64,000 nucleotides of DNA, from the NCBI GenBank assembly GCA_945919375.1, contig CAMEJD010000004.1, positions 27,443 to 91,442 of the forward strand, given 5' to 3'. The stretch comes from an uncultured Clostridia bacterium (GTDB lineage Bacteria > Bacillota > Clostridia > Christensenellales > UBA1242). The notes beneath the pieces were generated by a model, which did no database searches, was not told the origin of the DNA, and worked only from the letters and a program-made list of their open reading frames with translations. Each line of letters opens with the position of its first letter. Position 1 is the first letter of the stretch. Positions 26,969 through 60,678 of this stretch are shown here, one piece after another. The translations under genes were made by a program, and so were the position numbers.

Positions 26969-27103
26969 TACAGTTATAATAACATAACATCATTTTCTTA
27001 TTTTTATTGATATGATACTTTATTGTATTGTGTATAACTTGTTTATATACATGTGTATAAGTGTAGAAAATGTCTGTTTTCAGAATTTTTTGACGAATGT
27101 CTT

Positions 27104-37622: not shown

Positions 37623-37819
37623 AATTTTGCTTCCTTTTAATTTAATATTTTTATATCTTTAAATTGTTATATTTATTATATAGAGTGTGAAAATGTGGAT
37701 AACTATTTTTAAACACAATATATAGTTTAACATTTTGACATTTTACTTATTTTATAACAAAATATTGATTTTTTGAAATGTGGACAAGTTGTTAATAAAT
37801 TTTTTAATTTATCCACATA
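37623..37819. other. Candidate oriC segment (dnaA-dnaN intergenic DnaA boxes plus an AT-rich stretch)
   Basis: Perfect DnaA boxes lie at 37694-37702 (reverse) and 37809-37817. A one-mismatch box lies at 37779-37787 (reverse). An extremely AT-rich run spans 37640-37690. This is the canonical Firmicute location. Confidence 0.6.
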
Positions 37820-39181
37820 TTAACAATTTTCTTGAATTTGCTTTTTAATGTCGTCCAAGATAACTTTTGTTTTGTGGTCTTTTTTAAGTTTTTCTGTTAT
37901 CTTATCTCTTGAGTGGATAATTGTAGTATGGTCCCTTCCGCCAAACAATTTACCAATGCTTACAAGTGGAACTTCAAGCATATCACTAATAAGATATATT
38001 GCCATCATTCTTGGTTCAACAATTTCTTTGCTTTTCTTTTTGCCAATAATTTCTTTGTATTCAACACCATAATATTTGCTTACTGTTTGAATGATAAGTT
38101 CTGGAGTTATTCTTTTGTTTTGTTCCTCGGCTTGTTCTTTTAATGCTTCTTTTGCATCTTCCAAGGTTGCATTCTTTTTGCCAAGAAGTGTTGCAAAGAA
38201 ATATACCTTTCCAAGAGAACCTTCCATTTCACGAATATTTGTATCAACTTTTTCAGCAATGAAATCTATTGCGTCATCGTCAATAAAATATCTTTCAATT
38301 TGTGCTTTTTTCCTTAATATCGCTATTCTTGTTTCATAGTCCGGTGCTTGAATATCTTGTATAAATCCACTAACAAAACGAGAACGGAGTCTGTCGGTTA
38401 ATGTTTCAATTTCTTTTGGTGGTCTATCTGAAGAAATGATAATTTGTTTGTCTTGTTGATATAGGTCATTAAATGTGTTAAAAAATTCTTCTTGTGTTTC
38501 TATTCTTTTTGTCAAAAATTGAATATCATCAATCATCAAAACATCAACACTTCTATATTTTTCTCTAAATGCTGCTGTTCCTTTTGTTGGACCTTTATCT
38601 TTGTTTGAACCTAGAGATTCAACAAAGTCGTTTGTAAATTGGTTACAAGAAACATATTTGATTTTGAGTTTTGGGTTGTTTTGCTTGATATAGTTCCCAA
38701 TTGCGTGCAACAAGTGGGTTTTTCCAAGTCCAACACCACCATATATAAATAATGGGTTAAATTTGTGCCCCGGATTTTCGGCAACTGCTTTTGCTGCTGC
38801 ATAACAAACCTGATTGCTTTTTCCAACAACAAAGTTGTCAAAAGTATACTTTGCGTTGAACATATTTTCATCTTCTTCTTTGTTTTGTTCGTCTACAATT
38901 GTTTCTGGTTTGTTCTTTTTTAAATATTCTTCTTTTTCGTCTGGATCAAGTATTTCATATTCTGTGTCTGAACCAAAAACATCTCTAATTGCTTCACCAA
39001 GTTCTTTTGCGTGATTTTTTTGGAGTTGTTTTTTTGCTGTTACAGAGTTTGCAACCAAAATTAACTTGTCGGTGTAATCAAGAGGAACAATTGGCTCAAG
39101 CCAAAGTTCATAAGATACAATGCTGACAAGTGGTTCAATTTTTGAAAGTACCCTTTCCCACATTTGATTTAGGTCTTGCAT
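37820..39181 (-). CDS. dnaA: Chromosomal replication initiator DnaA
   Basis: The AAA+ Walker A motif is GGVGLGKTHLLHAIGN. The C-terminal DNA-binding helix region is GGRDHTTIIHSRDKI. Confidence 0.97.
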   Translation of the reverse strand: MQDLNQMWERVLSKIEPLVSIVSYELWLEPIVPLDYTDKLILVANSVTAKKQLQKNHAKELGEAIRDVFGSDTEYEILDPDEKEEYLKKNKPETIVDEQNKEEDENMFNAKYTFDNFVVGKSNQVCYAAAKAVAENPGHKFNPLFIYGGVGLGKTHLLHAIGNYIKQNNPKLKIKYVSCNQFTNDFVESLGSNKDKGPTKGTAAFREKYRSVDVLMIDDIQFLTKRIETQEEFFNTFNDLYQQDKQIIISSDRPPKEIETLTDRLRSRFVSGFIQDIQAPDYETRIAILRKKAQIERYFIDDDAIDFIAEKVDTNIREMEGSLGKVYFFATLLGKKNATLEDAKEALKEQAEEQNKRITPELIIQTVSKYYGVEYKEIIGKKKSKEIVEPRMMAIYLISDMLEVPLVSIGKLFGGRDHTTIIHSRDKITEKLKKDHKTKVILDDIKKQIQENC

Positions 39182-39371
39182 TTTTTTCTCCGAATATATT
39201 ATAACTTATCTACCCTATTTTTGCAAATATTTTTTATTAGTCTATATAATAAGGATATATAGTATATATAATTATATTAGAAAAAATAAACATATCTTTT
39301 TTTAAGTTAAATATCTACTCTATATTGACATAAAAAATTTTGTGTGTTAGTATTTAAAACAAGGTTAATAA

Positions 39372-40292
39372 ATGAAGGATAAAACAGTAAGAAGAGTATT
39401 CGTAGTGATAATTATTGCAATATTTTTGATGGCGTTTTACATAGGAATCGCATATGAAGTGGAAAACAAAAAAGTTGAAGTTATTGACACAAGTAATGGA
39501 ACAAAAGATATTGAAGATATAATTTATGATGACCAAAAAACCGATGACCAAGAAAAAAGCGAAGATAATTCAAAACTTGAAGAAGAACCTGTGAAAGTTA
39601 AAACCTATACATCAAGTCAAGGGTTCTCGTGTTTTATGGATGCAATGAAAATTTTAAAAAATGGCAAAGGTTTTGAAATTCAATCAAAGACAACTGGGGT
39701 TGCCGTTGGAGAAACTCAATGGGTTGATGAAACAATTATTATGTCAAAGAATTATTACTACAAAACAAATACTGCATACACAACAATGCCTTCTATGGGG
39801 AAAACTTACTTTAGGTATTTTTACTCAAATGATGGTGGACAAAATATAGAGTACAAAAAGACGAATTCTTTAAATAGTGATAAATCGCCAAATTGGTCAA
39901 GTGGGATTGAACAATGTATGCTAAACAATGAGAATGTGAAAGATTATGATGGCTATGCCCTAAAACCTTTTGCGATTGAACCAACTTCAAAAAAAGAACT
40001 TGTAAGTTTTAATATAACAGATGATAAGTATTATCAAATAACTTTTAAAATAAATAATATTCCAAAAGATTATATTGAGAACATAAAACATGAAGGTGAT
40101 TTAGATTGGGTTAACATTAGCACAATAAATTTGAAATTTTATATAGAAAAAGCAACAATGTATATAAGAAAAGTTGAAAAAAGTGAAGTTTATGATTCCC
40201 AAAAAATAATAAAATTTACTTGCAAAACCAAACAAGTTTCAATAATAAAACAAATTGATAAAGAAATTATTCCACAAAAACCAACAATATAA
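39372..40292 (+). CDS. Hypothetical signal-anchored protein
   Basis: This 306-aa ORF has an N-terminal TM helix (VFVVIIIAIFLMAFYIGIAY) followed by an acidic linker. A candidate promoter upstream reads TTGACA-17-TAGTAT. Confidence 0.6.
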   Translation: MKDKTVRRVFVVIIIAIFLMAFYIGIAYEVENKKVEVIDTSNGTKDIEDIIYDDQKTDDQEKSEDNSKLEEEPVKVKTYTSSQGFSCFMDAMKILKNGKGFEIQSKTTGVAVGETQWVDETIIMSKNYYYKTNTAYTTMPSMGKTYFRYFYSNDGGQNIEYKKTNSLNSDKSPNWSSGIEQCMLNNENVKDYDGYALKPFAIEPTSKKELVSFNITDDKYYQITFKINNIPKDYIENIKHEGDLDWVNISTINLKFYIEKATMYIRKVEKSEVYDSQKIIKFTCKTKQVSIIKQIDKEIIPQKPTI

Positions 40293-40367
40293 GTTAAAAA
40301 TGACAAAAAATGAGAGAGTATAACGGTAAAAAAGTTTTTCAATAAAAAAGAATGTACGCTTGTTGAT

Positions 40368-40801
40368 GTGTATGATGATGACCCAAGTTTTGATTGCGAA
40401 AAGCAATTAAAACAGTGTAAAAACGCTATAAAGAATTATGAAAAATATATAAATGATTTTGAAGCAAGTAATGATATATACAATTCAAAAATGCCACACT
40501 GGTTCAGTATTATTTGTTGTGGTATTATAATTGCATTATCTAGGGGTTTTGCATTTGCCTTGTCAAACATCCCACTTTTTGCAATTGCAATAATAAGTGG
40601 TGTCTTGGGCGAATATATTTAATTAAAAAAGCAAAATTAATAAGAACGATAAAAGAAAACAACGAAAATATTGATCTTTACAAAACTTATAAAAATAGTT
40701 TACTTGAAGAAAAGGAATATTTGGAACTTTTAACTTTTAATAAAACACATAAAGACGTAAAAATTTATAACAAGTTTGAAAAACAAACAGATTTGAAATA
40801 A
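40368..40801 (+). pseudogene. Possible frameshifted small membrane-protein gene
   Basis: An 84-codon ORF with a GTG start ends at 40620-40622. A second frame is open across that stop from 40622 to the TAA at 40799-40801. It encodes plausible sequence (IKKAKLIRTIKENNENIDLYKTYKNSLLEEKEYLELL...). Confidence 0.25.
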
Positions 40802-40900
40802 AGCATCAATAAAAATAAACCAAACAATGATAATATTTTAGGAATATGATAATAACTCTTGAAAATTATGGTAAGATGTATTATAATGTATACAAATTAA

Positions 40901-41461
40901 ATGGAGAATAATATGAGATTAAAAGAATTTGAAAAAATGAATTCACAAGATATGAAAAAAGCAATAAAAATAGTAGAAGAAGAAGGAATAGAAAATTATA
41001 CATCAAAATTGTGTGGAAGTGATTTTACCATATTACCACGTAAAACAGGTTTTATTAGGAAAAAAAGAAAGAATATTTCAATAATATTAAGCGAAGAATG
41101 TGCTCAACAAATTATCAACAGGTCAAAAATGAACAAGTATTTAAGCATTATGAAAGGCGAAAAATATCCTGTAAGATTTGACGAAAACAAAATTTATGCT
41201 TATGAAATTGGAAAAGGCATAAATAAAATAAACGAAGTATACAACGCAAAAAAAGATGATGATAACTTTGATAATCTTGTAAGAGAATTAAATGATGAAC
41301 TTTCAAGAATAGTAACTTTTGATAAAAAAGAAAAAGTTGTAACAGTTAAATTTACAAGTGAAGATATTAGCAAAATTAAAACTATTTTGGCAAAAGTAAA
41401 CATTGCATTAAATTCTGCAAGAAATGAAAAAGCAAAAGAGAACAACGAACAAACACTTTGA
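40901..41461 (+). CDS. Hypothetical protein
   Basis: This is a 186-aa K/E-rich ORF. It is followed by a strong terminator. Confidence 0.55.
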   Translation: MENNMRLKEFEKMNSQDMKKAIKIVEEEGIENYTSKLCGSDFTILPRKTGFIRKKRKNISIILSEECAQQIINRSKMNKYLSIMKGEKYPVRFDENKIYAYEIGKGINKINEVYNAKKDDDNFDNLVRELNDELSRIVTFDKKEKVVTVKFTSEDISKIKTILAKVNIALNSARNEKAKENNEQTL

Positions 41462-41467
41462 TAAAAA

Positions 41468-41503
41468 CAAAAAATATCTACCAAACTTGGTAGATATTTT
41501 TTT
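41468..41503. terminator. Bidirectional intrinsic terminator
   Basis: The stem pairs atatctacc (41474-41482) with ggtagatat (41489-41497). An A-run and a T-run flank it. Confidence 0.7.
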
Positions 41504-41508
41504 GCCGT

Positions 41509-42582
41509 CTAACACATTTCTGCAACTGCATTGTATAAAGTACCAATGCTTGAACTTGAAAATTCTTTAACACAATCCACAAAAGGTTTTTGTGTTGGGA
41601 AGTCTTTTAGATAAGCATCATAATCAAATCTATAAACTCTTACAAGTTTGTCATAGTTGACACTTTTTATTGACTTTTCAAAATTTTCTTTTTCGCCCAT
41701 AAATGCATTGTAAATATTTGACCATTTTTGAAGCATAGGAACTGTTACAGTTGTTTCTTTTGACAAGTTGATATTGTTGTATTTTTCCAAAGTTGAAACA
41801 AATTCATCTTTTTCCAAAAGTTTGTATTCGCCATTAAAACCATTTAGATATTCAATTGAAGATTTTAATGTGGATATTGAACTTTTTAAAACAGCTAAAG
41901 TTTTTTCATTTGTTATTTGAGTTTTTGAAAGGTCAATATATATGCCATTTTCAATATAACTTGTGTGTTTTGGGAAAATGTAATTTTCACAAATATTACT
42001 AAAACTGTCACAAATATCAATAACTTGATTTGTAAGGTCTATATAATCTCTTTTGTAATCTTTTATCAATTGAAGATAAATATCCTTTACCATATCATTT
42101 GCAGGAAAATCTTTTTTGTTGAACTGTTTGTCAATTTCTAAAGACTTACTTGCAAAATCTTGAATATTTGTTGTTGTTGTTTTAAGTTTGTTTGAAAGGT
42201 CTTTATATTTTTCCTTAACTTTTCCTCCAACATCTGATGGTTTTACTGCAAGAATACCTGAAAACTCGGATATAAACTTGAATGAATTTACAAATATTTT
42301 GTCATATATATCAGGAATTTGTGTGTATGAACTTAATTTCTCTTTGTTGCTTTCTGTAACATATCCGGGTTCGGTTTTTATTTTGGATATAATTGTATTG
42401 ACATTTTCGCCACGTTTTATCCCATTTGCATATTCCTCATTTTGACAAATTGTTGTTATAAAAGTTTCAAAATCTTCACTTGTTGTTTTATAAAAATTTG
42501 GGTCATTGTCACAACCATAAAATCCAAAGGATATTACAAATGCTAAACATATTATCATAAAACATTTAATAAATTTTTTCAT
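41509..42582 (-). CDS. Hypothetical exported protein, probable lipoprotein, helical
   Basis: The signal peptide ends in FGFYGC, a non-canonical lipobox. The gene lies 12 nt downstream of 42595..43566. Confidence 0.6.
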   Translation of the reverse strand: MKKFIKCFMIICLAFVISFGFYGCDNDPNFYKTTSEDFETFITTICQNEEYANGIKRGENVNTIISKIKTEPGYVTESNKEKLSSYTQIPDIYDKIFVNSFKFISEFSGILAVKPSDVGGKVKEKYKDLSNKLKTTTTNIQDFASKSLEIDKQFNKKDFPANDMVKDIYLQLIKDYKRDYIDLTNQVIDICDSFSNICENYIFPKHTSYIENGIYIDLSKTQITNEKTLAVLKSSISTLKSSIEYLNGFNGEYKLLEKDEFVSTLEKYNNINLSKETTVTVPMLQKWSNIYNAFMGEKENFEKSIKSVNYDKLVRVYRFDYDAYLKDFPTQKPFVDCVKEFSSSSIGTLYNAVAEMC

Positions 42583-42594
42583 TATGCTCTCCTT

Positions 42595-43566
42595 TTAGCC
42601 TTCCACCAAGAAAAAGTCTTTTAAAAGTGTGTGGGCACTACTTTTTAATTCTTCCGATTCTTGTGAGTTTGCCCAAGCAGTGTATGTGTTGTTTGCCAAA
42701 CTTTCAACACATATTTTTGTATCAATTTTTGTAAAATTGTTTAAAATATTATCAAAAGATTCTTGTGAATTAAAGTAAGTTTTTGATGTGTTTAGTGCCG
42801 AACTTAAAAAATTTGTGAGATTTGTGAGTGATGTTTGAATGTTTGAAATATTGCAATCTTTTTCTGATAAATTTGAAACAAGTTTTTGTTGCCACAAACA
42901 AGACATATTTATAACAAAACCAGAATATCTGTTTGTGCTGAATGTGTTTGTTAGATAATTTTGATATATCACCGAAGCATTAACATAAAAATTTGTTAAA
43001 CTGTTTAGAAAATTAAAGTAATACAAATTATTGTAGTTATCAATTAAATCAATAACTGTTTTATTTGATTTGTTGTCAATATCAATTGTGTAACAGTCCA
43101 AATATGTGTCAATATAATTTTTGCAGTCATTTGCAGATTTTTTTAAATCAATAAAACTGTTTGTCATATTTCTTTGATACTTTAACATTTTTCCGTCATT
43201 GTTTTTTGTAAATATCAAATTGTCTAACATCTTGGTGTCAATTGTTGAATAAAGGTTATATATTTTTAAAACCTGTTCAATTATTTTTCCCCTTTCACCA
43301 ATTGAATTTTTAAAAGCTTCATCTTGTTCTCTGTCTTCACAAGTGACTATATATTGATAAATATTTGTGTTATAAGATATAACTTCGTTGATGCTTTCAT
43401 CTGTTTTATAATCATAAAAATTATTATAAGGTGCATTCATATCAACTTTTGGGCTAAATAAGAAATATAACCCAATGCCAGCACCAATTATTGCAAAAAC
43501 AATTAAGATTGAAAGTAATGCTTTTTTGTTTATAAAAGAATTCTTTGCCATATGCTCTCCTATCAA
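42595..43566 (-). CDS. Hypothetical signal-anchored extracytoplasmic protein
   Basis: The N-terminal TM helix is ALLSILIVFAIIGAGIGLYFLF. The body of the protein is N/Y/T-rich. Confidence 0.6.
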   Translation of the reverse strand: MIGEHMAKNSFINKKALLSILIVFAIIGAGIGLYFLFSPKVDMNAPYNNFYDYKTDESINEVISYNTNIYQYIVTCEDREQDEAFKNSIGERGKIIEQVLKIYNLYSTIDTKMLDNLIFTKNNDGKMLKYQRNMTNSFIDLKKSANDCKNYIDTYLDCYTIDIDNKSNKTVIDLIDNYNNLYYFNFLNSLTNFYVNASVIYQNYLTNTFSTNRYSGFVINMSCLWQQKLVSNLSEKDCNISNIQTSLTNLTNFLSSALNTSKTYFNSQESFDNILNNFTKIDTKICVESLANNTYTAWANSQESEELKSSAHTLLKDFFLVEG

Positions 43567-43647
43567 GATAATTTTAACACAATTATATCAATAAAGCAAT
43601 AGTACTAAAATAAAAAATTGCCCCCAAAAAAGGACAATTTTTGATTG

Positions 43648-44658
43648 TTATTTTGCAATTGTTTCACAATTCTTGTTTGCGTTTAAATCGTTTAGCAAAT
43701 CTTTTTTTATTGATTCAGTTATCATAGTTACATAATTTTTGTAAGAAAGTGGAATCTTTACACCCATTTTTTCAACATTTTTTATTGCTTTTTTAATATT
43801 AAAATTGTTTATTGTGTTTGATAAAATTAACTTTGCATTTGGGGTTTTGTTTGCAAAATCTATAATATCTTTTTTAATGACATCATATTTTTTCTTATCG
43901 CTTTTGTTATAAGGCTTAACAGAAAATACAATATCAACTTTGTTATATAAGGACTTTATCAAATCAAAATCAACATTTTCATAAAACAAGTTCATTGCAG
44001 GTAAAGCATTTGCCAAAAATGAAAACTCATTATCAAATACAGGTGCCGGTTTTAGTTGATACATACCTTTGTTGAGCAAAAAGAAAACATTTCCGGCATG
44101 TCTATCTGTTTGCATTGTCAAAAAATCAAAAATTGCAAGTTTGTATAAATGTGTAAGAGATTTGCTGATATTTATATTATATCCACTATTTTTTAAAATT
44201 TTTAAAACGTGATAGTAATCATAAAGTGAGTTTTTTCTATCTTTTGAGTATGCCGAATATTTTATTTCGGCAGCACTTTTAAGTTGTTCATTCCCTTTTG
44301 CAACATTATAAGAAATAATACCATTTGTGCCATTTATTGTTGCTGGCTCGCAGGTCGCACAATCAAGACCGATTTGTTTGCAAAGTTCCATACACAAAAG
44401 TTCGTTTACAATTCTTGCAGGTTTTGTAATTTTTTGTGCATCAAAAGATTTGAATATGGCATCTTTGCCATTTACCTTAAACCAGTAATTACCATAAGTT
44501 TTTGTTGATATGCCAACAAAGTTAGTTGTATTATATTCGCTTCTAAATTTTTTTGGCGATTTGTCCAAAATAACACCAGTGGCAAGTTTTATATTTTCAT
44601 ATCTTCCAATATTTTTTATTATTGGATTAAACTCGGTTTTTAATGTTGCTGTGTCCAT
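43648..44658 (-). CDS. HipA_C / PI3-PI4-kinase-like atypical kinase (paralog family, member 2)
   Basis: The motifs are AIFKSF, RIVNELLCMELCKQIG, TMQTDRHAGNVFFL and PAPVFDNEFSF. Confidence 0.6.
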   Translation of the reverse strand: MDTATLKTEFNPIIKNIGRYENIKLATGVILDKSPKKFRSEYNTTNFVGISTKTYGNYWFKVNGKDAIFKSFDAQKITKPARIVNELLCMELCKQIGLDCATCEPATINGTNGIISYNVAKGNEQLKSAAEIKYSAYSKDRKNSLYDYYHVLKILKNSGYNINISKSLTHLYKLAIFDFLTMQTDRHAGNVFFLLNKGMYQLKPAPVFDNEFSFLANALPAMNLFYENVDFDLIKSLYNKVDIVFSVKPYNKSDKKKYDVIKKDIIDFANKTPNAKLILSNTINNFNIKKAIKNVEKMGVKIPLSYKNYVTMITESIKKDLLNDLNANKNCETIAK

Positions 44659-44670
44659 AAAAAATTCCTT

Positions 44671-45675
44671 TTATAATTTTTGAATTAAGTATTTTTCCTT
44701 ATTGTTTAATATTTTTTTAAGGGTTTCAATTGTACGCCTAAATTCCTTTACACTTTCACAGGTTATCATTGTAATCAAATCCTTGTAGTCATTGGAAATG
44801 GTAATGCCCATATTTTCAACATTTTTTATTGCTGTTTGTATATCAATTTTGTCAAGTGTTTTGATAAGGATTTTTTTTGCGTCTTGGTTTTTGCTTGCAA
44901 AAATAACCAAATCATTTTTTATTGTATCATATTTTTCTTTTCCACTTTCAATTTTGTTAACAAGAAGCAAATTCCTACTTGTACTAAATAAACTTTTTGC
45001 AATATTAAAATCTATTTCTCTATAGTCTTGTACGGTATTATCAAGATTAAATGAACAAAAAGCAAACTCGTTGTCAAAAATTGGCGAAAGCCTTATTTCA
45101 TTTGTTTTTGTGTTTTCAATAAACTGAATATTTTCTGAATGCCTATCTGTGTGAAGCAATAATTCATCAATAAGGCATATTTGATATAATTTTAAAGTTT
45201 CTTTCCTTATATTGATTTTATAGCCTTTGGACTTTAATATCTTTAATGCATTGTAATAAGATTTTAAGGTATTGTTATATTCATAGTCGCCTGCTTTATG
45301 TTTTAATTTAGAGCCGGTTATTAGTTTTTCATCTTTTCCCAAAACATTATAGGAAGCAATGCCACTTATTCCGTCTAAGGAAGCAAGTTTACATTTTGCA
45401 CAATCAATTTCAACTTGCTTTGAAATTTCATAAAACAAAAGTTCGTTTACAATTCTGTTTAGTTTTGTGTTTTTCATACATTCAAAAGACTTGAAAATAA
45501 CCTTGTCTTCACCCAAATAATACCAATAATTACCAAAGTGTCTTGATGAAATACCTGTTCTTGGGTCTTCCCTTTTAGTTCTTTTTTTGTTGTCAATAAC
45601 AATACCGGGGGAAAGTTTTATATCCCCAAATTTGTCAAGATTTTTTAAGATTGGTTTATACTCACAATTTTGCAT
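44671..45675 (-). CDS. HipA_C / PI3-PI4-kinase-like atypical kinase (paralog family, member 1)
   Basis: The motifs are VIFKSF, RIVNELLFYEISKQV, LLHTDRHSENIQFI and SPIFDNEFAF. Confidence 0.6.
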   Translation of the reverse strand: MQNCEYKPILKNLDKFGDIKLSPGIVIDNKKRTKREDPRTGISSRHFGNYWYYLGEDKVIFKSFECMKNTKLNRIVNELLFYEISKQVEIDCAKCKLASLDGISGIASYNVLGKDEKLITGSKLKHKAGDYEYNNTLKSYYNALKILKSKGYKINIRKETLKLYQICLIDELLLHTDRHSENIQFIENTKTNEIRLSPIFDNEFAFCSFNLDNTVQDYREIDFNIAKSLFSTSRNLLLVNKIESGKEKYDTIKNDLVIFASKNQDAKKILIKTLDKIDIQTAIKNVENMGITISNDYKDLITMITCESVKEFRRTIETLKKILNNKEKYLIQKL

Positions 45676-45871: not shown

Positions 45872-46012
45872 ATGGCAATGAAAAGAACATATCAACCAAA
45901 AAAGAGAAGAAGACAAAGTGTTCATGGCTTTAGAGAAAGAATGAGTACAAAAAGTGGTAGAAATGTTTTGAAACGTCGCAGAAACAGAGGTAGAAAAGTT
46001 TTGGCAGCGTAA
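45872..46012 (+). CDS. rpmH: 50S ribosomal protein L34
   Basis: It is below the ORF-track size cutoff. AGGAGG lies 9 nt upstream. The translation is [46 protein letters not shown]. Confidence 0.95.
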
Positions 46013-50752: not shown

Positions 50753-52087
50753 TTATTTTCCCAAACAAAATTTTGAGAATATTGCAGTTAATATATCATC
50801 CGTTGCATTTTCACCTGTTATTTTTCCAAGTTCAAGCCAAACTCGTTTTGCTTCCATATCAACCAAATCGGCAGTACCTGTTTTTGCAACTTCAATTGCA
50901 TTGTTTGTAAGGTCAATTGCTGTTTTTATAATTTCAATGTGCCTTTTGTTTGTAAGATAAACTTGCGAAAAGTCAATTTTATTAAGCCTTGCCATTTCAA
51001 TTATACGATCTTTTATCTCGTCAATATTTTTGTTTTCGTTTGCACAAACATAAACGGCATTATCAATTTTTGTAACAATCTTTTTGTCGGTTTTGTTTAA
51101 TACATAAATAACATTTTTGTCTTTAACAAGATCAAGAAGTTTGTTATCTTCGTCATCAAGTGGTTCACTTGAATCAAACACACATAAAACTATATCACTA
51201 TTTTTTATTGCGTTTATTGACCTATCTACACCAATTTTTTCAACTACATCGTCACTTTCTCTAATTCCGGCAGTGTCAATAAAATTGATTTTAAAACCTT
51301 TATACGAAATTGTTTCCTTTAAAATATCTCTTGTTGTGCCTTTTATGTCGGTTACAATTGCTCTATCTTCACCAAGCAAGCAATTAAGCAAACTAGATTT
51401 GCCAACATTTGGTTTGCCTACAATTGAAACATTTATTCCAAACTTTATTTGCTCACCTGTTTTTGCAGTTTTTAATAGATTATTCAAAATGTCTCTTGAA
51501 GAAATTAAGACATTTTGAACATCTTTGATTGACATTTCTTCGTCATCGTGTTCTGGATAGTCAAGGGCAACTTCCAAATTTACCAAGCAGTCTTTTATTT
51601 TGTTTTGAATATCAACAACTTGCTTTTTAAGTTTTCCATCGGCAAGCAAACTTGATGCCTTAATTTCGGCATCGCTTGTTGCATTTATCATATCAATTGT
51701 TGCTTCGGCTTCATCAAGTGACATTTTCCCATTCATAAATGCTCTTTTTGAAAATTCCCCATTTTCTGCAAGTTTACAACCGGAAATAACTAACTTATCC
51801 AAAATTTTTGTTGCCAAAAATTCCCCACCATGAATTTGAAATTCAACAACATCTTCACCGGTAAAGGAAAAAGGTGCTTTAAAATATACCATCATACAAC
51901 GTTCTTTTGCATCTTCGTTAATTTTAAATTTCCCAAGATATAACTTTCGTGGTTCAATATTCTCTTTTGTTAAATTTTTTGATGAAAAAAGGTCAAAGGC
52001 AATATCTTTTGCCTTGTCACCACTCATTCTTATTATTGCAATCCCGCCACTGCCAAGTGGTGTTGATATTTGTGCTATTGTTTCCAT
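50753..52087 (-). CDS. mnmE: tRNA modification GTPase MnmE
   Basis: The N-terminus is IAQISTPLGSGGIAIIRMSG, the G1 motif is GKPNVGKSSLLN, and the C-terminus is FCLGK. Confidence 0.93.
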   Translation of the reverse strand: METIAQISTPLGSGGIAIIRMSGDKAKDIAFDLFSSKNLTKENIEPRKLYLGKFKINEDAKERCMMVYFKAPFSFTGEDVVEFQIHGGEFLATKILDKLVISGCKLAENGEFSKRAFMNGKMSLDEAEATIDMINATSDAEIKASSLLADGKLKKQVVDIQNKIKDCLVNLEVALDYPEHDDEEMSIKDVQNVLISSRDILNNLLKTAKTGEQIKFGINVSIVGKPNVGKSSLLNCLLGEDRAIVTDIKGTTRDILKETISYKGFKINFIDTAGIRESDDVVEKIGVDRSINAIKNSDIVLCVFDSSEPLDDEDNKLLDLVKDKNVIYVLNKTDKKIVTKIDNAVYVCANENKNIDEIKDRIIEMARLNKIDFSQVYLTNKRHIEIIKTAIDLTNNAIEVAKTGTADLVDMEAKRVWLELGKITGENATDDILTAIFSKFCLGK

Positions 52088-52163
52088 ATTTTTATTATAA
52101 CATAAAAAAATGTTTTGTTAAAATATTTTTATATGACAACATTTGAATTGAGATATATTATAT

Positions 52164-52191
52164 AAAAAAAGGTTGTAAGAATTTTACAACC
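52164..52191 (-). terminator. Intrinsic terminator after the aminopeptidase gene
   Basis: On the minus strand, the hairpin ggttgtaa-aattc-ttacaacc is followed by seven T. Confidence 0.7.
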
Positions 52192-52199
52192 AAATAGAA

Positions 52200-53576
52200 T
52201 TACATTTTATAAAAACTTTTATAGCATAGATAACTCTCGTATATATCAACCTTGCTTGCAATTTCCCAAGGTGCGTGCATATTAAGAAGTGGGACACCTG
52301 CATCGATGACTTCCATTCCATAGCCCGCCATAATGTATGCAATTGTTCCACCGCCACCAGCATCAACCTTTCCCATTTCGGTTGCTTGGTAAAACACATT
52401 GTCGTTATCCAAAATATTTCTTAGTTTTGCAATAAATTCTGGGTTTGCATCATTTGCATCATATTTCCCACGACTTCCTGTATATTTGTTAAATGCGATT
52501 CCTCTGCAAAGGTATGCATCAGTTTTTTCATTCATTGGCGTTGGATAGTTTGGGTCAAAGCCTGCCGTAACATCGCTGGATAGCATTCTTGACTTATTCA
52601 GTGCTCTACGCATATTTAGTTCGTTATATTGCCCTGCAAGGTTCATTATTTCGGCAATGGAATTTTCAAAAAATTTACTACTCATTCCTGTTGCTCCAAC
52701 ACTTCCAATTTCTTCTTTGTCAACAAGCATACAAATTGAAGTTGTTTTTGGATTATTAACATCAAGTATTGCATTAAGAGCAGTAAATGCACACACTCTG
52801 TCATCTTGCCCATAACCCATAATCATACTTTTGTCAAGTCCAAAATCTCTTGCTTTTCCGCTTGGGACAATTTCTATTTCGGCAGAGAACAAATCTTCTT
52901 CATCAATATTATATTGTTTTAGTATCTTTAAAATGTTGGATTTAACTTTGTCTTTTTCTTTTGTGTTACTATCCGGAATACTCCCAACCAAAACATTAAG
53001 GTCCTCACCTTTTATGTCTTTTTTGTTTTCTTTTTCCTTGCTTTCAAGGTGTGGTAATAAATCACTTATTCCAAAAACAAAATCACTATCATCTTCGCCC
53101 AAAACCAACTTTATTTTTTCACCATTCTTTTTTACAACAACACCATGCATTGCAAGTGGCAACGCTGTCCATTGATATTTTTTTATTCCACCATAGTAGT
53201 GAGTGTCAAAAAGGCAAAGGCCATTGTTTTCGTACACTGGTGTTGCTTTAAGGTCAAGTCTTGGACTATCAATATGTGCACCGATAAGATTCATTCCTTT
53301 TAACATTGGTTCGCTTCCGATTACCATAAGAAGAATTGCTTTCCCCATATTTACTGAATATACTTTGTCGCCTGCTTTTAACTTTTTGTTTTCCAAAATT
53401 GCTTTTTCAAGGTTAATAAAACCATTTTTTTCTGCAACGCTTACAGTGTATTCAATGCATTCCCTTTCTGTTTTATGTGTTGATAAAAACTTTTTGTAAT
53501 CTTCACAAAAAACATTCATTGCATTTGTTTTTTCTTCATTATATTTTATCCAAATATTTTCCATACTAACTCCCAA
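52200..53576 (-). CDS. M18-family aminopeptidase
   Basis: The motifs are GAHIDSPRLDLK, DKEEIGS and NMHAPWE. The likely start is the MENIWIK ATG at 53564. Confidence 0.8.
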   Translation of the reverse strand: MGVSMENIWIKYNEEKTNAMNVFCEDYKKFLSTHKTERECIEYTVSVAEKNGFINLEKAILENKKLKAGDKVYSVNMGKAILLMVIGSEPMLKGMNLIGAHIDSPRLDLKATPVYENNGLCLFDTHYYGGIKKYQWTALPLAMHGVVVKKNGEKIKLVLGEDDSDFVFGISDLLPHLESKEKENKKDIKGEDLNVLVGSIPDSNTKEKDKVKSNILKILKQYNIDEEDLFSAEIEIVPSGKARDFGLDKSMIMGYGQDDRVCAFTALNAILDVNNPKTTSICMLVDKEEIGSVGATGMSSKFFENSIAEIMNLAGQYNELNMRRALNKSRMLSSDVTAGFDPNYPTPMNEKTDAYLCRGIAFNKYTGSRGKYDANDANPEFIAKLRNILDNDNVFYQATEMGKVDAGGGGTIAYIMAGYGMEVIDAGVPLLNMHAPWEIASKVDIYESYLCYKSFYKM

Positions 53577-53632
53577 AATTATTTTAACCTAAAATTGCCT
53601 AAATAATCAAACAATAAACTAAAAAAGAGATG

Positions 53633-54376
53633 TTAGTCATCCCTTTTTGAATGTGACATAAAGAATAATATAAATCTTAATAGTTGCAAAATTGACACAA
53701 GCAAGGCGGCAACATAAGTTTTTGCGGCTGCGGACAATACTTTTTTTGCCCCCTTTACTTCCATTTCGTCAACGCAACCGGTTGAAACTAGCAAAGAAAG
53801 TGCTCTTTTTGATGCATTTATTTCAACAGGCAAAGTTACAAGTGAAAACAACATACTAACACCAAAGAATGCAACGCCTGCCCATAAGAATGCTTTTCCA
53901 ACAATCCCACCAATATATGCAAAATCAAGAACGATTCCGATTAACACAAGTGGCCAAACAAAATATGACATAAAATTGCTTACATGAACAAGTGCTGTTC
54001 TAACCTTCATTGGTTTATATTCTTGGGCATATTGAATTGCATGTCCCGTTTCGTGGGCTGCGACTCCCAAAGCAGAAATTGATGTTGAATCATATACTTT
54101 TGATGATAATGTGATAATGTTTGTTTGGGGATTAAAGTTGTCAACAAGTTCACTATCTTCGCTTTTTTGTATTGTAACACCAATAATTCCTTGTGACTCC
54201 AAAATTCTCCTAACACATTCTGCCCCAGTAATGTTTTTTGAAGAAACAACTTTTTCGTATTTAGAAAATGTTGTGTTGACTTTTATGCTGACAATTGTTG
54301 CATAAATAATTCCGGGAATTAAAATTAACCCCATTAGTGTGTATTCCAAATATTCAGGTGAAAACATAACCCACAT
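53633..54376 (-). CDS. Membrane zinc metallopeptidase (YugP / Zn_peptidase_2-like)
   Basis: It has an HExxH motif (AAHETGHAIQYAQ) and flanking TM helices. Confidence 0.75.
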   Translation of the reverse strand: MWVMFSPEYLEYTLMGLILIPGIIYATIVSIKVNTTFSKYEKVVSSKNITGAECVRRILESQGIIGVTIQKSEDSELVDNFNPQTNIITLSSKVYDSTSISALGVAAHETGHAIQYAQEYKPMKVRTALVHVSNFMSYFVWPLVLIGIVLDFAYIGGIVGKAFLWAGVAFFGVSMLFSLVTLPVEINASKRALSLLVSTGCVDEMEVKGAKKVLSAAAKTYVAALLVSILQLLRFILFFMSHSKRDD

Positions 54377-54391
54377 AAAATAAATCTCCTT

Positions 54392-55138
54392 TTAGTAAAA
54401 ATCATATTTTTTGACAAGCATTGTCCAACCGACAAGACTTTTTAAAAATGATGATATATATGTTAATTTTGCTGCAGAAAGCACTTTTTTTGCGTCTTTT
54501 ATGCTCTCTTCATCAAAGTCAGCATATTTTTTTAATAATTCTATTGCATTTTCTGATGCTTCTTTTTCTATTCTTATGGTGCTTAGTTTTGCAAATAATC
54601 CTATTAAAAATGTTATTATGCTTGCAACTGCAAAACTGATTGCAAACCAAAAGTTTATGAACATAAGTATTATTCCAATAACAAAAAGTGGCATTGTAAA
54701 TTTTGTAACAGTTTTTGAAATAACAAGATTTGCACTAAATTTTTTCATTTTTTTGGGTGTGTCACGATATTGAATTGCGTGACCTAATTCGTGACAAGCA
54801 ACAGCAAATGCTGAAATGCTTGAAGAATCGTATACATCTTGACTTAAATATATTGTTCCATTGTAATAGTAGTCCGACAAAAAACCTTGTGTTTTTTCTA
54901 CTGCAATTTTTCCATTAAACTCTTGATTTGAAATTGTGCTAGCAAGTTCGTGTGTCTTTAAAAAACTAGAATATGTGTTTTTGTACTGATTATACACTGT
55001 AAGCAAGTTCTCCCCGGCATAATTAGTAATTGCCAAACTTACAAGAATAAATAACACAAACACGCTTACAAGACAAATAATGATTATTGTATTTACGTCC
55101 ATACATATTATAATGTAAAATTTTGATAAAAATGTCAA
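54392..55138 (-). CDS. Membrane zinc metallopeptidase (YugP-like), tandem paralog
   Basis: It has an HExxH motif (ACHELGHAIQYRD). The likely start is the MDVNTI ATG at 55102. Confidence 0.75.
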   Translation of the reverse strand: MTFLSKFYIIICMDVNTIIIICLVSVFVLFILVSLAITNYAGENLLTVYNQYKNTYSSFLKTHELASTISNQEFNGKIAVEKTQGFLSDYYYNGTIYLSQDVYDSSSISAFAVACHELGHAIQYRDTPKKMKKFSANLVISKTVTKFTMPLFVIGIILMFINFWFAISFAVASIITFLIGLFAKLSTIRIEKEASENAIELLKKYADFDEESIKDAKKVLSAAKLTYISSFLKSLVGWTMLVKKYDFY

Positions 55139-55280
55139 ATAAAATAAATCTATATGGCAAATTTAATGAAAAAAGAATTATAGTTTCAAATATTGATTTT
55201 AAAAGAATGTTTATTTGAAATATAGTAACATATTAACAGTTGTTTAAAATTCGTCAAATTTGCATTTTTTGTTACAATTT

Positions 55281-55410
55281 TTAGTATAAAAATTAGTATA
55301 CTAACTTAAAACTCTACACACCTTTTGTTATATGGAATTAAGCCACTTTTAAATTACCTAAAATTTGCATAAAATACTGCAAAAATTAGTATAAATTTTA
55401 GTATACTAAC
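55281..55410. repeat. Two copies of TTAGTATAAAwwTTAGTATACTAAC, each containing the 12-bp palindrome TTAGTATACTAA
   Basis: The copies lie at 55281-55305 and 55386-55410. The palindromes lie at 55293-55304 and 55398-55409. They sit in the spacer between tRNA-Leu and the peptidase operon. Confidence 0.7.
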
Positions 55411-55413
55411 TAT

Positions 55414-55447
55414 AAAAAAAGAGATACAGCAAAAACTCTGTATCCCT
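55414..55447 (-). terminator. Intrinsic terminator after tRNA-Leu
   Basis: On the minus strand, the hairpin gggatacag-agtttttg-ctgtatctc is followed by seven T. Confidence 0.7.
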
Positions 55448-55463
55448 TTATTTATATGCATTT

Positions 55464-55545
55464 TGGTGCGAGTAACGAGACTTGAACTCATACGATTTCT
55501 CACTTGCCCCTTAAACAAGCGCGTCTACCATTCCGCCATACTCGC
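55464..55545 (-). tRNA. tRNA-Leu (class II, long variable arm), anticodon AAG in the canonical register
   Basis: The reverse complement is GCGAGTATGGCGGAATGGTAGACGCGCTTGTTTAAGGGGCAAGTGAGAAATCGTATGAGTTCAAGTCTCGTTACTCGCACCA. It folds with a 7-bp acceptor stem, a D loop AATGGTAGA and an anticodon stem CTTGT/GCAAG. The anticodon loop is TTAAGGG, the variable arm is 11 nt, the T loop is TTCAAGT, the discriminator is A, and CCA is encoded. It aligns well with the E. coli tRNA-Leu(CAG) sequence as I recall it. Confidence 0.9.
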
Positions 55546-56977: not shown

Positions 56978-57799
56978 ATGGGAAAAATAATTGCTTTCGC
57001 CAATCAAAAGGGTGGTGTTGGCAAAACTACAACCTGTATAAATGTTGCTGCATATATTGCCGCAATGGGGAAAAAGGTTTTGCTAATTGATATGGATCCC
57101 CAAGGGAACACTACAAGTGGCGTTGGAATTGATAAATCTAACAAAGAATTAAAAACTCTTTATAATGTAATTAACAAAGATGTAATAGTTGATGAAGCAA
57201 TATATCCAACTTGTGTTGAGGATTTGGATATAATCCCAGCAACAGTAGATTTGGCTGGCGCTGAAATTGACCTTGTTCAAATGCATTCAAGAGAACATGT
57301 TGTAAAAAATGCATTGGCAAGAGTAAAAAATAAATATGATTTTATATTTATCGACTGCCCACCATCATTAGGTCTATTGACTGTAAATGCCCTAACTGCT
57401 GCAGATTCCGTTATAATTCCAATTCAATGTCAGTTCTATGCATTGGAAGGCTTAACACAATTGATGAACACAATAAAACTTATTATTCATCACCTAAACC
57501 CTGACCTAAAAATTGAAGGCGTTGTCCTTACAATGAAGGACAATCGCTCAAATCTTGTTCAACAAGTTAGTGATGAAGTTAAAAAATTCTTTAATAAAAA
57601 GGTATTTGATACATATATTCCACAGAATATAAGGCTTGCCGAAGCACCAAGCCATGGACTGCCAATTATGCTGTATGATACAAATTCAAAAGGTGCAAAT
57701 GCATATCAAAGTTTGGCAGAAGAAATATTGGAAAGGAATAATCAAAGTTATAAAAAAATAACTAAATCGACAAAATTTAAAGTAAGGAGTGAACAATAA
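56978..57799 (+). CDS. parA: ParA/Soj chromosome-partitioning ATPase
   Basis: The deviant Walker A motif is ANQKGGVGKTTT. The segment DCPPSLGLLTVNAL is also present. Confidence 0.93.
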   Translation: MGKIIAFANQKGGVGKTTTCINVAAYIAAMGKKVLLIDMDPQGNTTSGVGIDKSNKELKTLYNVINKDVIVDEAIYPTCVEDLDIIPATVDLAGAEIDLVQMHSREHVVKNALARVKNKYDFIFIDCPPSLGLLTVNALTAADSVIIPIQCQFYALEGLTQLMNTIKLIIHHLNPDLKIEGVVLTMKDNRSNLVQQVSDEVKKFFNKKVFDTYIPQNIRLAEAPSHGLPIMLYDTNSKGANAYQSLAEEILERNNQSYKKITKSTKFKVRSEQ

Positions 57800-58788
57800 T
57801 GGCACAAAAGAAAATGGGACTTGGTAAAGGTCTTGGGGCTTTGTTATCAATATATGATGAAGAAGTTGATGATTTGGAAAGTGACAATAAAAAACCTGTA
57901 GCGCAAGAGAAAAAAGAGCAAGAAACAACAATTGTTGAAGGTACAAAAGTTAAAGGTGGAGTTGAGGAAATTCCTGTAAGCGAAATAAGACCAAATCCAA
58001 ACCAACCAAGAAAGAATTTTGATCCGGAAGCATTAAACGAACTTGCAAATTCGATTAAAACACATGGTATTATACAACCTATTGTTGTAAACAAAGATAA
58101 AACTGGATATATGATTATCGCCGGTGAAAGAAGATGGCGCGCATCAAAAATTGCAGGGCTTGATACCGTTCCATGTGTTGTAAAGAACTACACTGAACGA
58201 CAAATAAAAGAAATTTCAATCATAGAAAACTTGCAAAGAGAAGATTTGAATCCTATTGAAGCAGCAAGAGCAATTAAACAACTTATGGATGAATATAATT
58301 TCACGCAAGAAACTGTTGCTGACAGAATTGGCATTTCAAGACCAAATATTGCAAATACTTTAAGACTTTTGGCATTGTGCCCTGAAGTTATTGCAATGGT
58401 AGAACAAGGAAAATTGAGTGCTGGTCATGCAAGATGTTTGGTTGTTATAACCGACCCAAAAGTTCAACAAAAGTTTGCAGTTGCTGCAAGTAATGGTAAA
58501 GTTACTGTAAGAGAACTTGAAAAATTAGTAAAATCATACCTTAATCCAAAGGGTAGCACAAAAAATAAGCCACCAGAACAAAGTATGGAACTTAAAGAAC
58601 TTATAAATGAAATGCAAAGAGTATTCTCAACAAAAGTTTCGGCAATTGGTAGTGATAGAAAAGGTAGAATATACATAGACTATTATTCAAGAGATGATTT
58701 GGATAGAATTGCTGAATTGTTGGAACTATTAAAAACAAAAACTTTAACACTAAAAGATTTGAGTAATTTTAATAAAAAGGTTCAATAA
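57799..58788 (+). CDS. parB: ParB/Spo0J chromosome-partitioning protein
   Basis: The motifs are GLGKGLGALL, IRPNPNQPRKNFD and the GERRWRA box. An HTH segment (TQETVADRIGISRPNIANTLRLL) is present. The gene has a 1-nt overlap with parA. Confidence 0.93.
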   Translation: MAQKKMGLGKGLGALLSIYDEEVDDLESDNKKPVAQEKKEQETTIVEGTKVKGGVEEIPVSEIRPNPNQPRKNFDPEALNELANSIKTHGIIQPIVVNKDKTGYMIIAGERRWRASKIAGLDTVPCVVKNYTERQIKEISIIENLQREDLNPIEAARAIKQLMDEYNFTQETVADRIGISRPNIANTLRLLALCPEVIAMVEQGKLSAGHARCLVVITDPKVQQKFAVAASNGKVTVRELEKLVKSYLNPKGSTKNKPPEQSMELKELINEMQRVFSTKVSAIGSDRKGRIYIDYYSRDDLDRIAELLELLKTKTLTLKDLSNFNKKVQ

Positions 58789-58806
58789 TTGATTTAAAAA
58801 ATGAAT

Positions 58807-58843
58807 AAAAAGACTGTCATAAATGCTTGACAGTCTTTTCTTA
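58807..58843 (+). terminator. Intrinsic terminator after parB
   Basis: A 10-bp stem pairs aagactgtca (58810-58819) with tgacagtctt (58828-58837). The sequence ttctt follows. Confidence 0.7.
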
Positions 58844-58852
58844 TGTTTAAAG

Positions 58853-58971
58853 TTATCCACATTCGGTTGAACAAAATTTATAAAAATAGGCAAAATTTAC
58901 CAAAAATGGGGACTAAAAAATGTCGTTTTATCCACATTTTGAGGTATAAATGTGGATAACTGTGTGGATAA
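58853..58971. promoter_or_regulatory. DnaA-box cluster (4 perfect boxes within 119 bp)
   Basis: TTATCCACA occurs at 58853-58861 and 58928-58936. TGTGGATAA occurs at 58951-58959 and 58963-58971. Confidence 0.8.
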
Positions 58972-59032
58972 GTCAAAAATTATGCATATTACCCCAATTG
59001 ATTGAGAATTTTATATTTCCTTAATAGTTTAT

Positions 59033-59048
59033 TGTTTCACGTGAAACA
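59033..59048. promoter_or_regulatory. parS site 1 (TGTTTCACGTGAAACA)
   Basis: It is an exact 16-bp palindrome matching the Firmicute parS consensus tGTTNCACGTGAAACa. Confidence 0.85.
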
Positions 59049-59106
59049 TTGGGTAAAATTTGTATACTGCTTTTTGCTTAGTATAACATATTTGAGGTGG
59101 CAATAT

Positions 59107-59253
59107 ATGATAAATGTGTTTTTGCTATTTGTGGTTATATTAGTATTTTGTATGTTTATATTTGTGTTAATATATCTTACAAGATTGAATTCGTTTTGCG
59201 ATGTAATCGGGTTTAAAATTTTTCTTGTAGAATTAGGTTGTTTTATGGCATGA
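59107..59253 (+). CDS. Candidate 48-aa hydrophobic small protein
   Basis: A GAGGTGG Shine-Dalgarno sequence (59094-59100) lies 6 nt upstream of the ATG. The peptide is MINVFLLFVVILVFCMFIFVLIYLTRLNSFCDVIGFKIFLVELGCFMA. It has no homology support. Confidence 0.3.
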   Translation: MINVFLLFVVILVFCMFIFVLIYLTRLNSFCDVIGFKIFLVELGCFMA

Positions 59254-59494
59254 ATATATCTTATATACATATTGTATTGATATTCTGATTTATATGGTAT
59301 TTTGATTTTTGTCATTATGCTTGTTTATGGTTTCAAAACAGGTAGTTTTTAATTATTTAATTTAAGTATATGTTTGTATAAAGATAATGCACTAGTTCAT
59401 TTTTATGACAGAATGGTAAAAAATGATTATTTTTAAATTTTTTCATTGCAAATTACCTAAACATTAAAATACCTGTCTTCGTGTATGTATCAAA

Positions 59495-59510
59495 TGTTTC
59501 ACGTGAAACA
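59495..59510. promoter_or_regulatory. parS site 2
   Basis: The 16-mer is exact. It lies inside a 28-bp perfect palindrome at 59489-59516 (atcaaatgtttcacgtgaaacatttgat). Confidence 0.85.
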
Positions 59511-59821
59511 TTTGATTAGAACAATTTAGTTGTTTGCATATTTTTGTATACAAACGTGTACGGTAGCAATACTCTTTGTACTAATAATGTTGTTATTGTG
59601 CAAAAATCACAAGGTGTAAACTGTTTTTATGTCTTTACTTTATGCAATTTTTGTGATTTTGGGTAATGACCGGATGCCTTTTGTATAGTTAAACACTATT
59701 ATATAAAAATATTTTGTGTTGTAACTTGGTATATATGATTGTTTAGTTCGTGAATTGTTTGTCTTATATAGAAAACTATATGTTTTTATGTTTTGATTTG
59801 CTATTTATTGTATAACAAAAA

Positions 59822-59837
59822 TGTTTCACGTGAAACA
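59822..59837. promoter_or_regulatory. parS site 3
   Basis: The 16-mer is exact. It lies inside a 26-bp perfect palindrome at 59817-59842. Confidence 0.85.
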
Positions 59838-60021
59838 TTTTTTGGTTATTTTATCAAATAAACATGCATGTGCATTGAGTTTTTGCATGGTATATGTACT
59901 TTTTTAATAAATTAATTATAAATCATATTATGTGTTTATCTTAATATATTATTAGTACAGTTACCATGTGTAGTGTAATTGTTATATTTTTGCTTAACAA
60001 TATTGCGATATGTTATCAAAA

Positions 60022-60037
60022 TGTTTCACGTGAAACA
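60022..60037. promoter_or_regulatory. parS site 4
   Basis: The 16-mer is exact. It lies inside a 30-bp perfect palindrome at 60015-60044 (atcaaaatgtttcacgtgaaacattttgat). Confidence 0.85.
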
Positions 60038-60226
60038 TTTTGATGAAAAGTATGTATTGTGCATTGTTAAATATTGTTGTTGTATGTGTGCTGTTGCCGA
60101 TTTATATATATTGTTATATTATTATACAATTAGATTAAGTCTTTTTATGTAAATAATTGCTTGTGATTATGTCTAATGTGGTTTCGGTATATTTATGTGT
60201 ATTATAAACTTTAAAATTTGAAATAA

Positions 60227-60242
60227 TGTTTCACGTGAAACA
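60227..60242. promoter_or_regulatory. parS site 5
   Basis: The 16-mer is exact. It lies inside a 26-bp perfect palindrome at 60222-60247. Confidence 0.85.
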
Positions 60243-60678
60243 TTATTATTGTATATTTTTTTGGATTTTTCTTCTGCACTGCTATCATTTTTGCAAAATT
60301 TTGCTTAAAAATATTGTTCAAAATATGCTTTGTGTGCTTACAATCATTTTAGTTAAGCATTTTATTTTAAATAATTATTAGATATGTATTGCTGTGCTAA
60401 TGGATCGTATGGTAATGACTGTAAAGAATTTTTTGTATATTTCCTTATACATTCTTATTTACATTTTTAATTTTTAGGAAATTGTTTTGAATAGTCAAAA
60501 ATGCTCTGGCTCAATTTCTGTGGTCTATAACCTTTGCATCTGTGTTATTTGTTTATAGGTAAAAGTGTTCGTTAAAAATGATTAAAATTTGTTTTGAATA
60601 AGATTTTTTAATGCCCATTTTTTGATATAATTTGGTTTTTTTGAATAAAAAAATGAATATTAGCAATAATTATATGCC

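Follow-up and report, generated by a model that had tools for sequence, protein, structure and literature searches.

Why should four perfect DnaA boxes stand between parB and the chromosomal centromere, away from dnaA, and does this locus belong to the replication origin, to the segregation machinery or to the control of the initiator itself? We addressed this question in a window of 64,000 nucleotides (contig C4, positions 27443-91442), by which we mean the whole stretch of DNA that was analysed, within an assembly of 1.16 Mb distributed over 26 contigs and having about 30% GC. All the evidence is sequence-based and comes from metagenome-assembled genomes. Unless another sequence is named, positions are those of the window, and the features that define the locus are the following:

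45872-46012, + strand: rpmH, with about 6.5 kb of other genes between dnaA and it
57799-58788, + strand: parB (spo0J-type), NCBIfam parB_part 190 bits (cutoff 58)
58808-58839, + strand: rho-independent terminator of parAB, a stem of 12-13 pairs and then a T run
58853-58861, + strand: DnaA box 1, perfect TTATCCACA
58862-58927: AT-rich spacer of 66 bp from box 1 to box 2, constrained in length and unconserved in sequence (by-eye alignment and spacing table), AT fraction 0.68-0.86
58928-58936, + strand: DnaA box 2, perfect TTATCCACA, facing box 3
58951-58959, - strand: DnaA box 3, perfect TTATCCACA, invariant in the genus
58963-58971, - strand: DnaA box 4, perfect TTATCCACA in this genome, in tandem with box 3 across a 3-bp gap
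59033-60242: parS array, the chromosomal centromere, with five perfect sites at 59033, 59495, 59822, 60022 and 60227

The parB gene closes the origin-flank block rpmH-rnpA-yidD-yidC-jag ... rsmG-parA-parB, and its product is closest, among named records, to proteins from uncultured Clostridia MAGs, one of which is labelled Christensenella sp. UBA5893 (97% identity). Past rpmH the order is rnpA, yidD, yidC, jag, two further genes, an inverted mnmE, a tRNA-Leu and then rsmG-parA-parB on the + strand; downstream of parB come the boxes, the parS array within a gene-free spacer of 1.9 kb and a gene of the CvpA family (60679). Such an order is the classical origin-flank block of Firmicutes, with the cluster at its far end. 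The cluster is predicted to lie outside the parAB transcript, and a comparable hairpin ahead of box 1 was recognised by eye in relatives.

Two parts of this neighbourhood vary among genomes. The inversion of mnmE falls in the interval 50753-55545, where mnmG, absent from the contig, is replaced by an M18 aminopeptidase, two unnamed genes and the tRNA-Leu(AAG); genome G003 has mnmG between mnmE and rsmG. The spacer behind parB (58789-60678) is G- and T-rich on the + strand, with a GC skew of +0.25, and spans 1.9 kb with parS sites 200-460 bp apart, while that of G003 measures about 0.5 kb and has its parS sites closer together.

An earlier note on this DNA had described two forward and two reverse perfect boxes within 119 bp, beginning just past the parB terminator, ending about 60 bp from the first parS site and at least as dense as those of the dnaA-dnaN spacer. 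This description proved correct: all four boxes are present at the coordinates listed above, box 1 begins 14 nt after the stem of the terminator, box 4 is 61 bp from parS1, and the four perfect boxes compare with two perfect (37694 and 37809) and two one-mismatch boxes in the dnaA-dnaN spacer. The note had also warned that such groupings might simply be frequent in a very AT-rich genome, which turned out not to be the case. Shuffling predicts 0.88 perfect boxes for the window, which contains ten, a number attained in 0 of 100 shuffles. Across the assembly there are 24 perfect boxes, 14 of them singletons, in agreement with the approximately 14 expected from base composition over the whole assembly; the other ten fall into three clusters, all inside the window, namely four boxes at 26733-26952, two in the dnaA-dnaN spacer and four at the parB-side locus. 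When one mismatch was allowed, a whole-assembly search for at least three boxes in 300 bp returned the same three loci and, in addition, only one weak site on contig C8. Confinement of the clusters to three loci in 1.16 Mb is what defeats the explanation by base composition. Within the 1.9-kb spacer the parS sites were the sole repeats, with no trace of the boxes having been duplicated from a longer unit, and Rfam and tRNA scans of the spacer behind parB found no RNA family.

In order to establish how well the arrangement is conserved, parB was located in 40 related genomes and the DNA behind it was read; the genus, delimited by ParB identities of 78-100%, provided 18 assessable species. The same layout (terminator, box 1(+), box 2(+), box 3(-), box 4(-), parS1 and then 2-6 more parS sites) is kept in 16 of these 18 species, the remaining two being a variant (L011) and a species without boxes but with parS (L005). 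Its recurrence in many independent assemblies makes misassembly unlikely. In all carriers of the module the boxes lie between parB and parS1. Measured from start to start, box 1 and box 2 are separated by 65/66 bp in seven species and by 74-76 bp in nine, box 2 and box 3 by 22/23 bp (33 bp in the variant L011, counted by hand), and box 3 and box 4 by 12 bp (13 bp in one species). Box 2 reads TTATCCACA or TTGTCCACA in every module-carrying species and box 3 is perfect in all of them, while box 4 is degenerate in many relatives, where it reads TGTGTATAA, TGTGTAAAA or TGTGCAAAA. Between box 4 and parS1 lie 5-17 bp in 11 of the 16 species and 45-63 bp in the others, including the focal genome (61 bp).

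The spacing classes differ by about one helical turn, a pattern that would fit a phased protein-DNA complex but is suggestive only, because the two length classes may stem from as few as two indel events, which makes the support for phasing thin. By contrast with the spacing, the sequences between and around the boxes showed no conservation across the species of the genus when aligned by eye, with no -35/-10 or other element in common. Fixed spacing over unconserved spacer sequence suggests a protein-DNA architecture rather than a promoter or an RNA. It is consequently very improbable that the boxes form a DnaA-controlled promoter or operator, whether for the cvpA-like gene (60679), for some small ORF of the spacer or for an antisense transcript running into parB. 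DnaA does act as a transcription factor at several of the DnaA-box clusters (DBCs) of B. subtilis (PMC3245932), and the other cluster in this genome sits upstream of an operon; nevertheless, promoter-like matches at 58.7-60.8 kb numbered 22 against 19 in shuffles, with only the parB terminator standing out, and the next gene is 1.7 kb off, past five parS sites.

Outside the genus the centromere persists and the boxes do not. Among 80 family loci, the seven with ParB identity of at least 77% all have boxes; in the other 73 a small near-parS cluster was found only once (L128), and most of them keep 2-7 parS sites behind parB. Since the boxes are limited to the genus and the parS array is family-wide, the module appears as an innovation of the genus grafted onto the family centromere. 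We also sampled 401 genomes across the order, including a single genome of the focal genus, itself one with the 61-bp gap, and found two in which a perfect box and a perfect parS come within 30 bp of each other, about the number expected by chance, implying that tight juxtaposition of box and parS is not widespread in the order. We rejected the idea that the boxes make up for a large separation of origin and parS, given that the mnmE-to-parB block and a parS array occur without boxes in most genera of the family.

Several loci of this wider survey deserve separate mention. At L128 (4941-5216), with a ParB identity of 58%, three DnaA boxes, two of them perfect, lie just past the three parS sites of that locus, and this may be an independent case of boxes beside parS. 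In another family of the order (G092:C8:48182-48213), 7 bp separate TGTGGATAA from the perfect parS that follows it, as at the junction in the focal genus, although this is within chance over 401 genomes. In L056 and L058 (1100-5300), from a sister genus (e.g. Candidatus Caccopulliclostridium), the order is dnaN<-dnaA / parA->parB->parS array with no rsmG between, and the dnaA-dnaN spacer has 3-4 perfect boxes at about 3.6 kb from the centromere, so that origin and centromere are almost adjacent.

The number of boxes raises the possibility of an origin. Four perfect boxes, more than at dnaA-dnaN, stand beside an AT-rich spacer (24-25% GC), and boxes are absent upstream of dnaA (39182-39371); the earlier note had entertained a displaced or second origin, to which the distal half of a split origin can be added. 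We consider such an origin at parB extremely unlikely, for reasons that concern the following region as much as the cluster itself:

36510-37622, - strand: dnaN
37623-37819, - strand: dnaA-dnaN spacer, most likely the origin unwinding site, with tandem boxes, a perfect box, triplet repeats and an AT-rich tract before dnaN
37820-39181, - strand: dnaA

The architecture of the dnaA-dnaN spacer is conserved in four species. Read in the direction of dnaA, it comprises TTATCAACA, a 2-bp gap, TTGTCCACA, about 85 bp, a further box, triplets of the type TAC/TAA/TAT, an AT tract and dnaN. The same part of the spacer in genome G001 reads ATTTCCACA-CC-TACTACTAATAATACTACTAT-TTAAAAAATAAAAAATAAAATTAAAAGG and closely resembles the DnaA-trio region of C. 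difficile oriC2, 5'-CACCTACTACTATTACTACTATGA-3' (PMC7561715). The basal unwinding system consists of a box, a spacer, DnaA-trios and AT-rich DNA, the trios being expected within about 16 bp downstream of a box in the TTATCCACA orientation and the AT-rich unwinding element after them (PMC8287927). The dnaA-dnaN spacer has both trios and unwinding element; at the parB-side cluster, inspection of both strands showed all four boxes to be without DnaA-trio triplets behind them, and no unwinding element is conserved.

Strand composition leads to the same place. The large contigs display monotonic cumulative GC skew and 76-93% gene co-orientation with C4 as the sole exception, and there the cumulative minimum, which the earlier note had proposed as a check on a displaced origin, is found at about 38 kb of the window, i.e. 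at dnaA and not at the cluster. The raw curve is ambiguous on its own, being flat from 34 to 56 kb, and was resolved by regressing out gene strand. As skew strongly tracks gene strand, the gene-level skew was fitted as the sum of a strand term and a replication-direction term, which took values of 0.126 and 0.059, respectively, on the nine monotonic contigs. The strand-corrected scan of C4 placed the change point at 35.8-37.8 kb, the best position being 35.8-36.5 kb, with the dnaA-dnaN spacer at -0.26 log-likelihood units and the region 58.8-60.7 kb at -12.3. Free-parameter fits to C4 and to long contigs of three other species gave -0.05 to -0.38 for dnaA-dnaN in all of them and -3.2, -3.8, -7.0 and -9.0 for the parB-side cluster, a minor secondary origin being beyond the reach of this type of test. 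Furthermore, in most members of the genus dnaA, dnaN, rpmH and rnpA through parB all point one way, toward the cluster, and an origin at the cluster would therefore leave the whole dnaA-to-parB block head-on to the fork. A displaced or second origin is thus unsupported: in four species the skew change point maps to dnaA-dnaN, where the unwinding module also resides. Replication most likely starts in the dnaA-dnaN spacer, at a distance of 21 kb from the cluster (11-12 kb in three relatives).

With no boxes upstream of dnaA, the origin seems to be the dnaA-dnaN spacer alone and hence one-part, unlike the two-part origins of B. subtilis and C. difficile. In G003, dnaA lies downstream of nrdD-nrdG and only 42 bp separate it from the mscS-like gene that precedes it (L031:8782-8823). 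The dnaN-dnaA block (36510-45675) is inverted in the focal genome and its two closest relatives with respect to most of the genus (L031, L042/L043, L047), and one end of this inversion adjoins the dnaA-dnaN origin spacer.

If the boxes do not mark an origin, a second locus in the same genome is informative about what they may be:

26733-27060, + strand: second DnaA-box cluster, with four perfect same-strand boxes and five one-mismatch boxes

It lies upstream of a metG-mrnC-rlmB-sigH-like operon (mini-RNase III, SpoU methylase, sigma factor), or directly upstream of mrnC where metG is absent, and across the genus it is retained with fixed distances of its own (95, 67-69 and 57 bp) and with no parS there. 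The genus has exactly two non-origin DnaA-box clusters, and the conservation of the second one indicates that the genus makes use of such clusters. In three relatives the origin spacer has one-mismatch boxes only, the perfect ones being in the two clusters, a distribution that fits a titration design. The genus member without the parB-side cluster (G016) still has two perfect boxes 95 bp apart at the second cluster.

We therefore favour the reading that the parB-side boxes are probably an origin-proximal, high-affinity DnaA assembly site outside the origin, of the DBC or datA kind, which abuts the centromere. What is observed in this reading is the sites, their rarity, their conservation, their geometry and the fact that the locus is not the skew-defined origin. 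The cluster has several consensus boxes, is intergenic and lies near the origin, as non-origin DnaA-box clusters do. The closest known examples are the six oriC-proximal DBCs of B. subtilis, which include the thdF-jag spacer (Okumura et al., 2012; PMC3245932) and regulate initiation negatively. Clusters of this type are marked by stable binding of DnaA in vivo and a negative effect on initiation, both of which are predictions for the present locus. Deletion of all six leads to early initiation, is synthetically severe with deletion of spo0J and is suppressed by deletion of soj, and a single re-inserted DBC rescues best when placed near the origin (PMC3245932). The cluster described here resembles them in having consensus boxes in intergenic DNA, outside oriC yet close to it, in a Firmicute host; moreover, the thdF-jag DBC belongs to the same rpmH-to-parB origin-flank block. 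It differs in being small (3-4 boxes), with strictly conserved spacing and orientation, and in abutting parS1; it follows a terminator instead of occupying a promoter region, and its role here is a predicted one. The constant placement against parS1 is what separates it from the B. subtilis DBCs.

As an assembly site, the cluster would work as follows. DnaA would fill boxes 1-4 as one phased complex, made up of the facing boxes 2 and 3, of box 4 as a head-to-tail continuation of box 3, and of box 1, which would join them by way of the bendable AT-rich spacer. At 11-21 kb from the origin, the cluster would be duplicated soon after initiation, and the duplicated cluster would hold or modify DnaA and in this way hold back the following round of initiation or set its timing. 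Lying against the sites at which ParB loads, the cluster would put a pool of DnaA beside ParB/ParA (Spo0J/Soj), and the Spo0J/Soj machinery regulates DnaA in Firmicutes. The earlier note had suggested DnaA titration or a regulatory hub tied to ParABS; the conserved, fixed geometry between parB and parS1 and the existence of the DBC class are consistent with this proposal, of which the function itself stays a prediction. We infer occupancy by DnaA, a regulatory effect on initiation and a functional coupling to ParABS. Three observations count against the assembly-site reading or limit its form: L005 has parS without boxes and can thus dispense with the module; the distance from box 4 to parS1 varies, which argues against a rigid DnaA-ParB complex; and four boxes would make a small DnaA sink in comparison with the B. 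subtilis DBCs or datA.

The proximity to parS admits a different role, in which the boxes serve the centromere and DnaA beside parS acts on segregation and not on initiation. DnaA could license or trigger the movement of ParB/parS, or it could be a roadblock to ParB-CTP clamps (or SMC) from parS1 entering parAB, biasing their spreading away from the operon. We regard such a role as possible, if on balance unlikely. The unvarying position of the boxes between parB and the first parS, at 5-17 bp in most species, and the retention of the parS array in the same place throughout the family speak for it, as does a precedent: in Caulobacter, DnaA occupies boxes of the parS region, and translocation of the centromere requires DnaA-ATP (Mera et al., 2014, as reviewed in PMC6399470). 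DnaA boxes adjacent to a parS region, as in the Caulobacter type, are likewise found here, and in both cases boxes beside parS near the origin provide a direct link between initiator and centromere. The two systems differ, however, in that C. crescentus is an alphaproteobacterium with another parS architecture and a translocation trigger in a polar PopZ-based system, whereas the present one consists of four phased consensus boxes limited to one genus. More directly, most genera of the family, and L005 within the genus, have the same parS array without boxes, which implies that the centromere functions in their absence; a specific contact is made less likely by the variable distance from box 4 to parS1; and a roadblock needs neither four phased sites nor a second, parS-free cluster.

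The geometry of boxes 2-4 brings to mind the DnaA-reactivating sites of E. coli. The core of DARS1 and DARS2 (Fujimitsu et al., 2009; PMC6868365, PMC5742627) has box I opposite boxes II and III and a head-to-head interaction (PMC5742627, PMC6868365), with a facing gap of 5 bp (PMC6868365). We read DARS1 directly as TTATCCACT, 5 bp, TGTGGATAA, 3 bp, TGTGTATTA; boxes 2-4 of the genus run TTATCCACA, 13/14 bp, TGTGGATAA, 3 bp, TGTG[G/T]A[T/A]AA. Box 2(+), box 3(-) and box 4(-) thus have the orientation of box I against the tandem II-III, and DARS1 is matched further in the 3-bp gap of the tandem pair, in a middle box that is perfect and in a third that is degenerate. On this basis the boxes could be a DARS-like reactivating site, or a datA-like inactivating one, in which the facing pair and the tandem third box force a head-to-head contact that changes the bound nucleotide. 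We judge this quite improbable. The facing gap is 13-14 bp in the species of the genus and not 5 bp, and the orientation pattern is one of only four classes, so the match to DARS is weak evidence. DARS and datA are reported to be absent from B. subtilis (PMC13220808), the cofactors IHF and Fis are, going by B. subtilis, not expected in the present organism either (PMC13220808), and our literature search turned up no DARS-like element for Firmicutes. Unlike DARS1 and DARS2, the cluster is without an IHF/Fis region. A DARS promotes the release of ADP from ADP-DnaA, as the cluster would have to do under this reading.

A comparison with datA of E. coli concerns the other half of the cluster. Boxes 1 and 2 point the same way on either side of an AT-rich spacer constrained in length, an arrangement which, compared by layout alone, recalls datA as an origin-proximal, high-affinity cluster with two same-direction boxes and a long bendable spacer whose length matters. 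E. coli datA needs an IHF site, located between its essential same-direction boxes, and promotes the hydrolysis of DnaA-ATP. No IHF is expected here, and the number and layout of the boxes differ. Taking both halves together, the phased tetrad might switch the state of DnaA in the manner of DARS or datA, as the first such element in Firmicutes, having been recruited to a ParB loading site where ParB/ParA would gate the release of active DnaA or its sequestration; this version is rather unlikely.

The communication between ParA/ParB and DnaA is still unsettled, and Firmicutes are without known datA- or DARS-like loci (PMC13220808). The class to which we assign the cluster, that of non-origin DnaA boxes, is already known; here it is represented in a genus of small uncultured gut Clostridia, in a constant place beside parS. 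In about 200 bp, the locus offers a compact natural module made up of a terminator, four phased DnaA boxes and parS, which sets initiator and centromere protein side by side, and the genus supplies natural controls in L005, which is without boxes, and in the variants whose boxes stand about 10 bp farther apart. The module lends itself to tests of the effect of DnaA on the loading and spreading of ParB, or of the effect of ParABS on the occupancy and nucleotide state of DnaA. Should the tetrad prove to switch the state of DnaA, it would constitute a hard-wired cis link from segregation status to the licensing of a new round of initiation; were its role confined to titration, it would be a clean example of origin-proximal DBCs extending to Clostridia with very small genomes.
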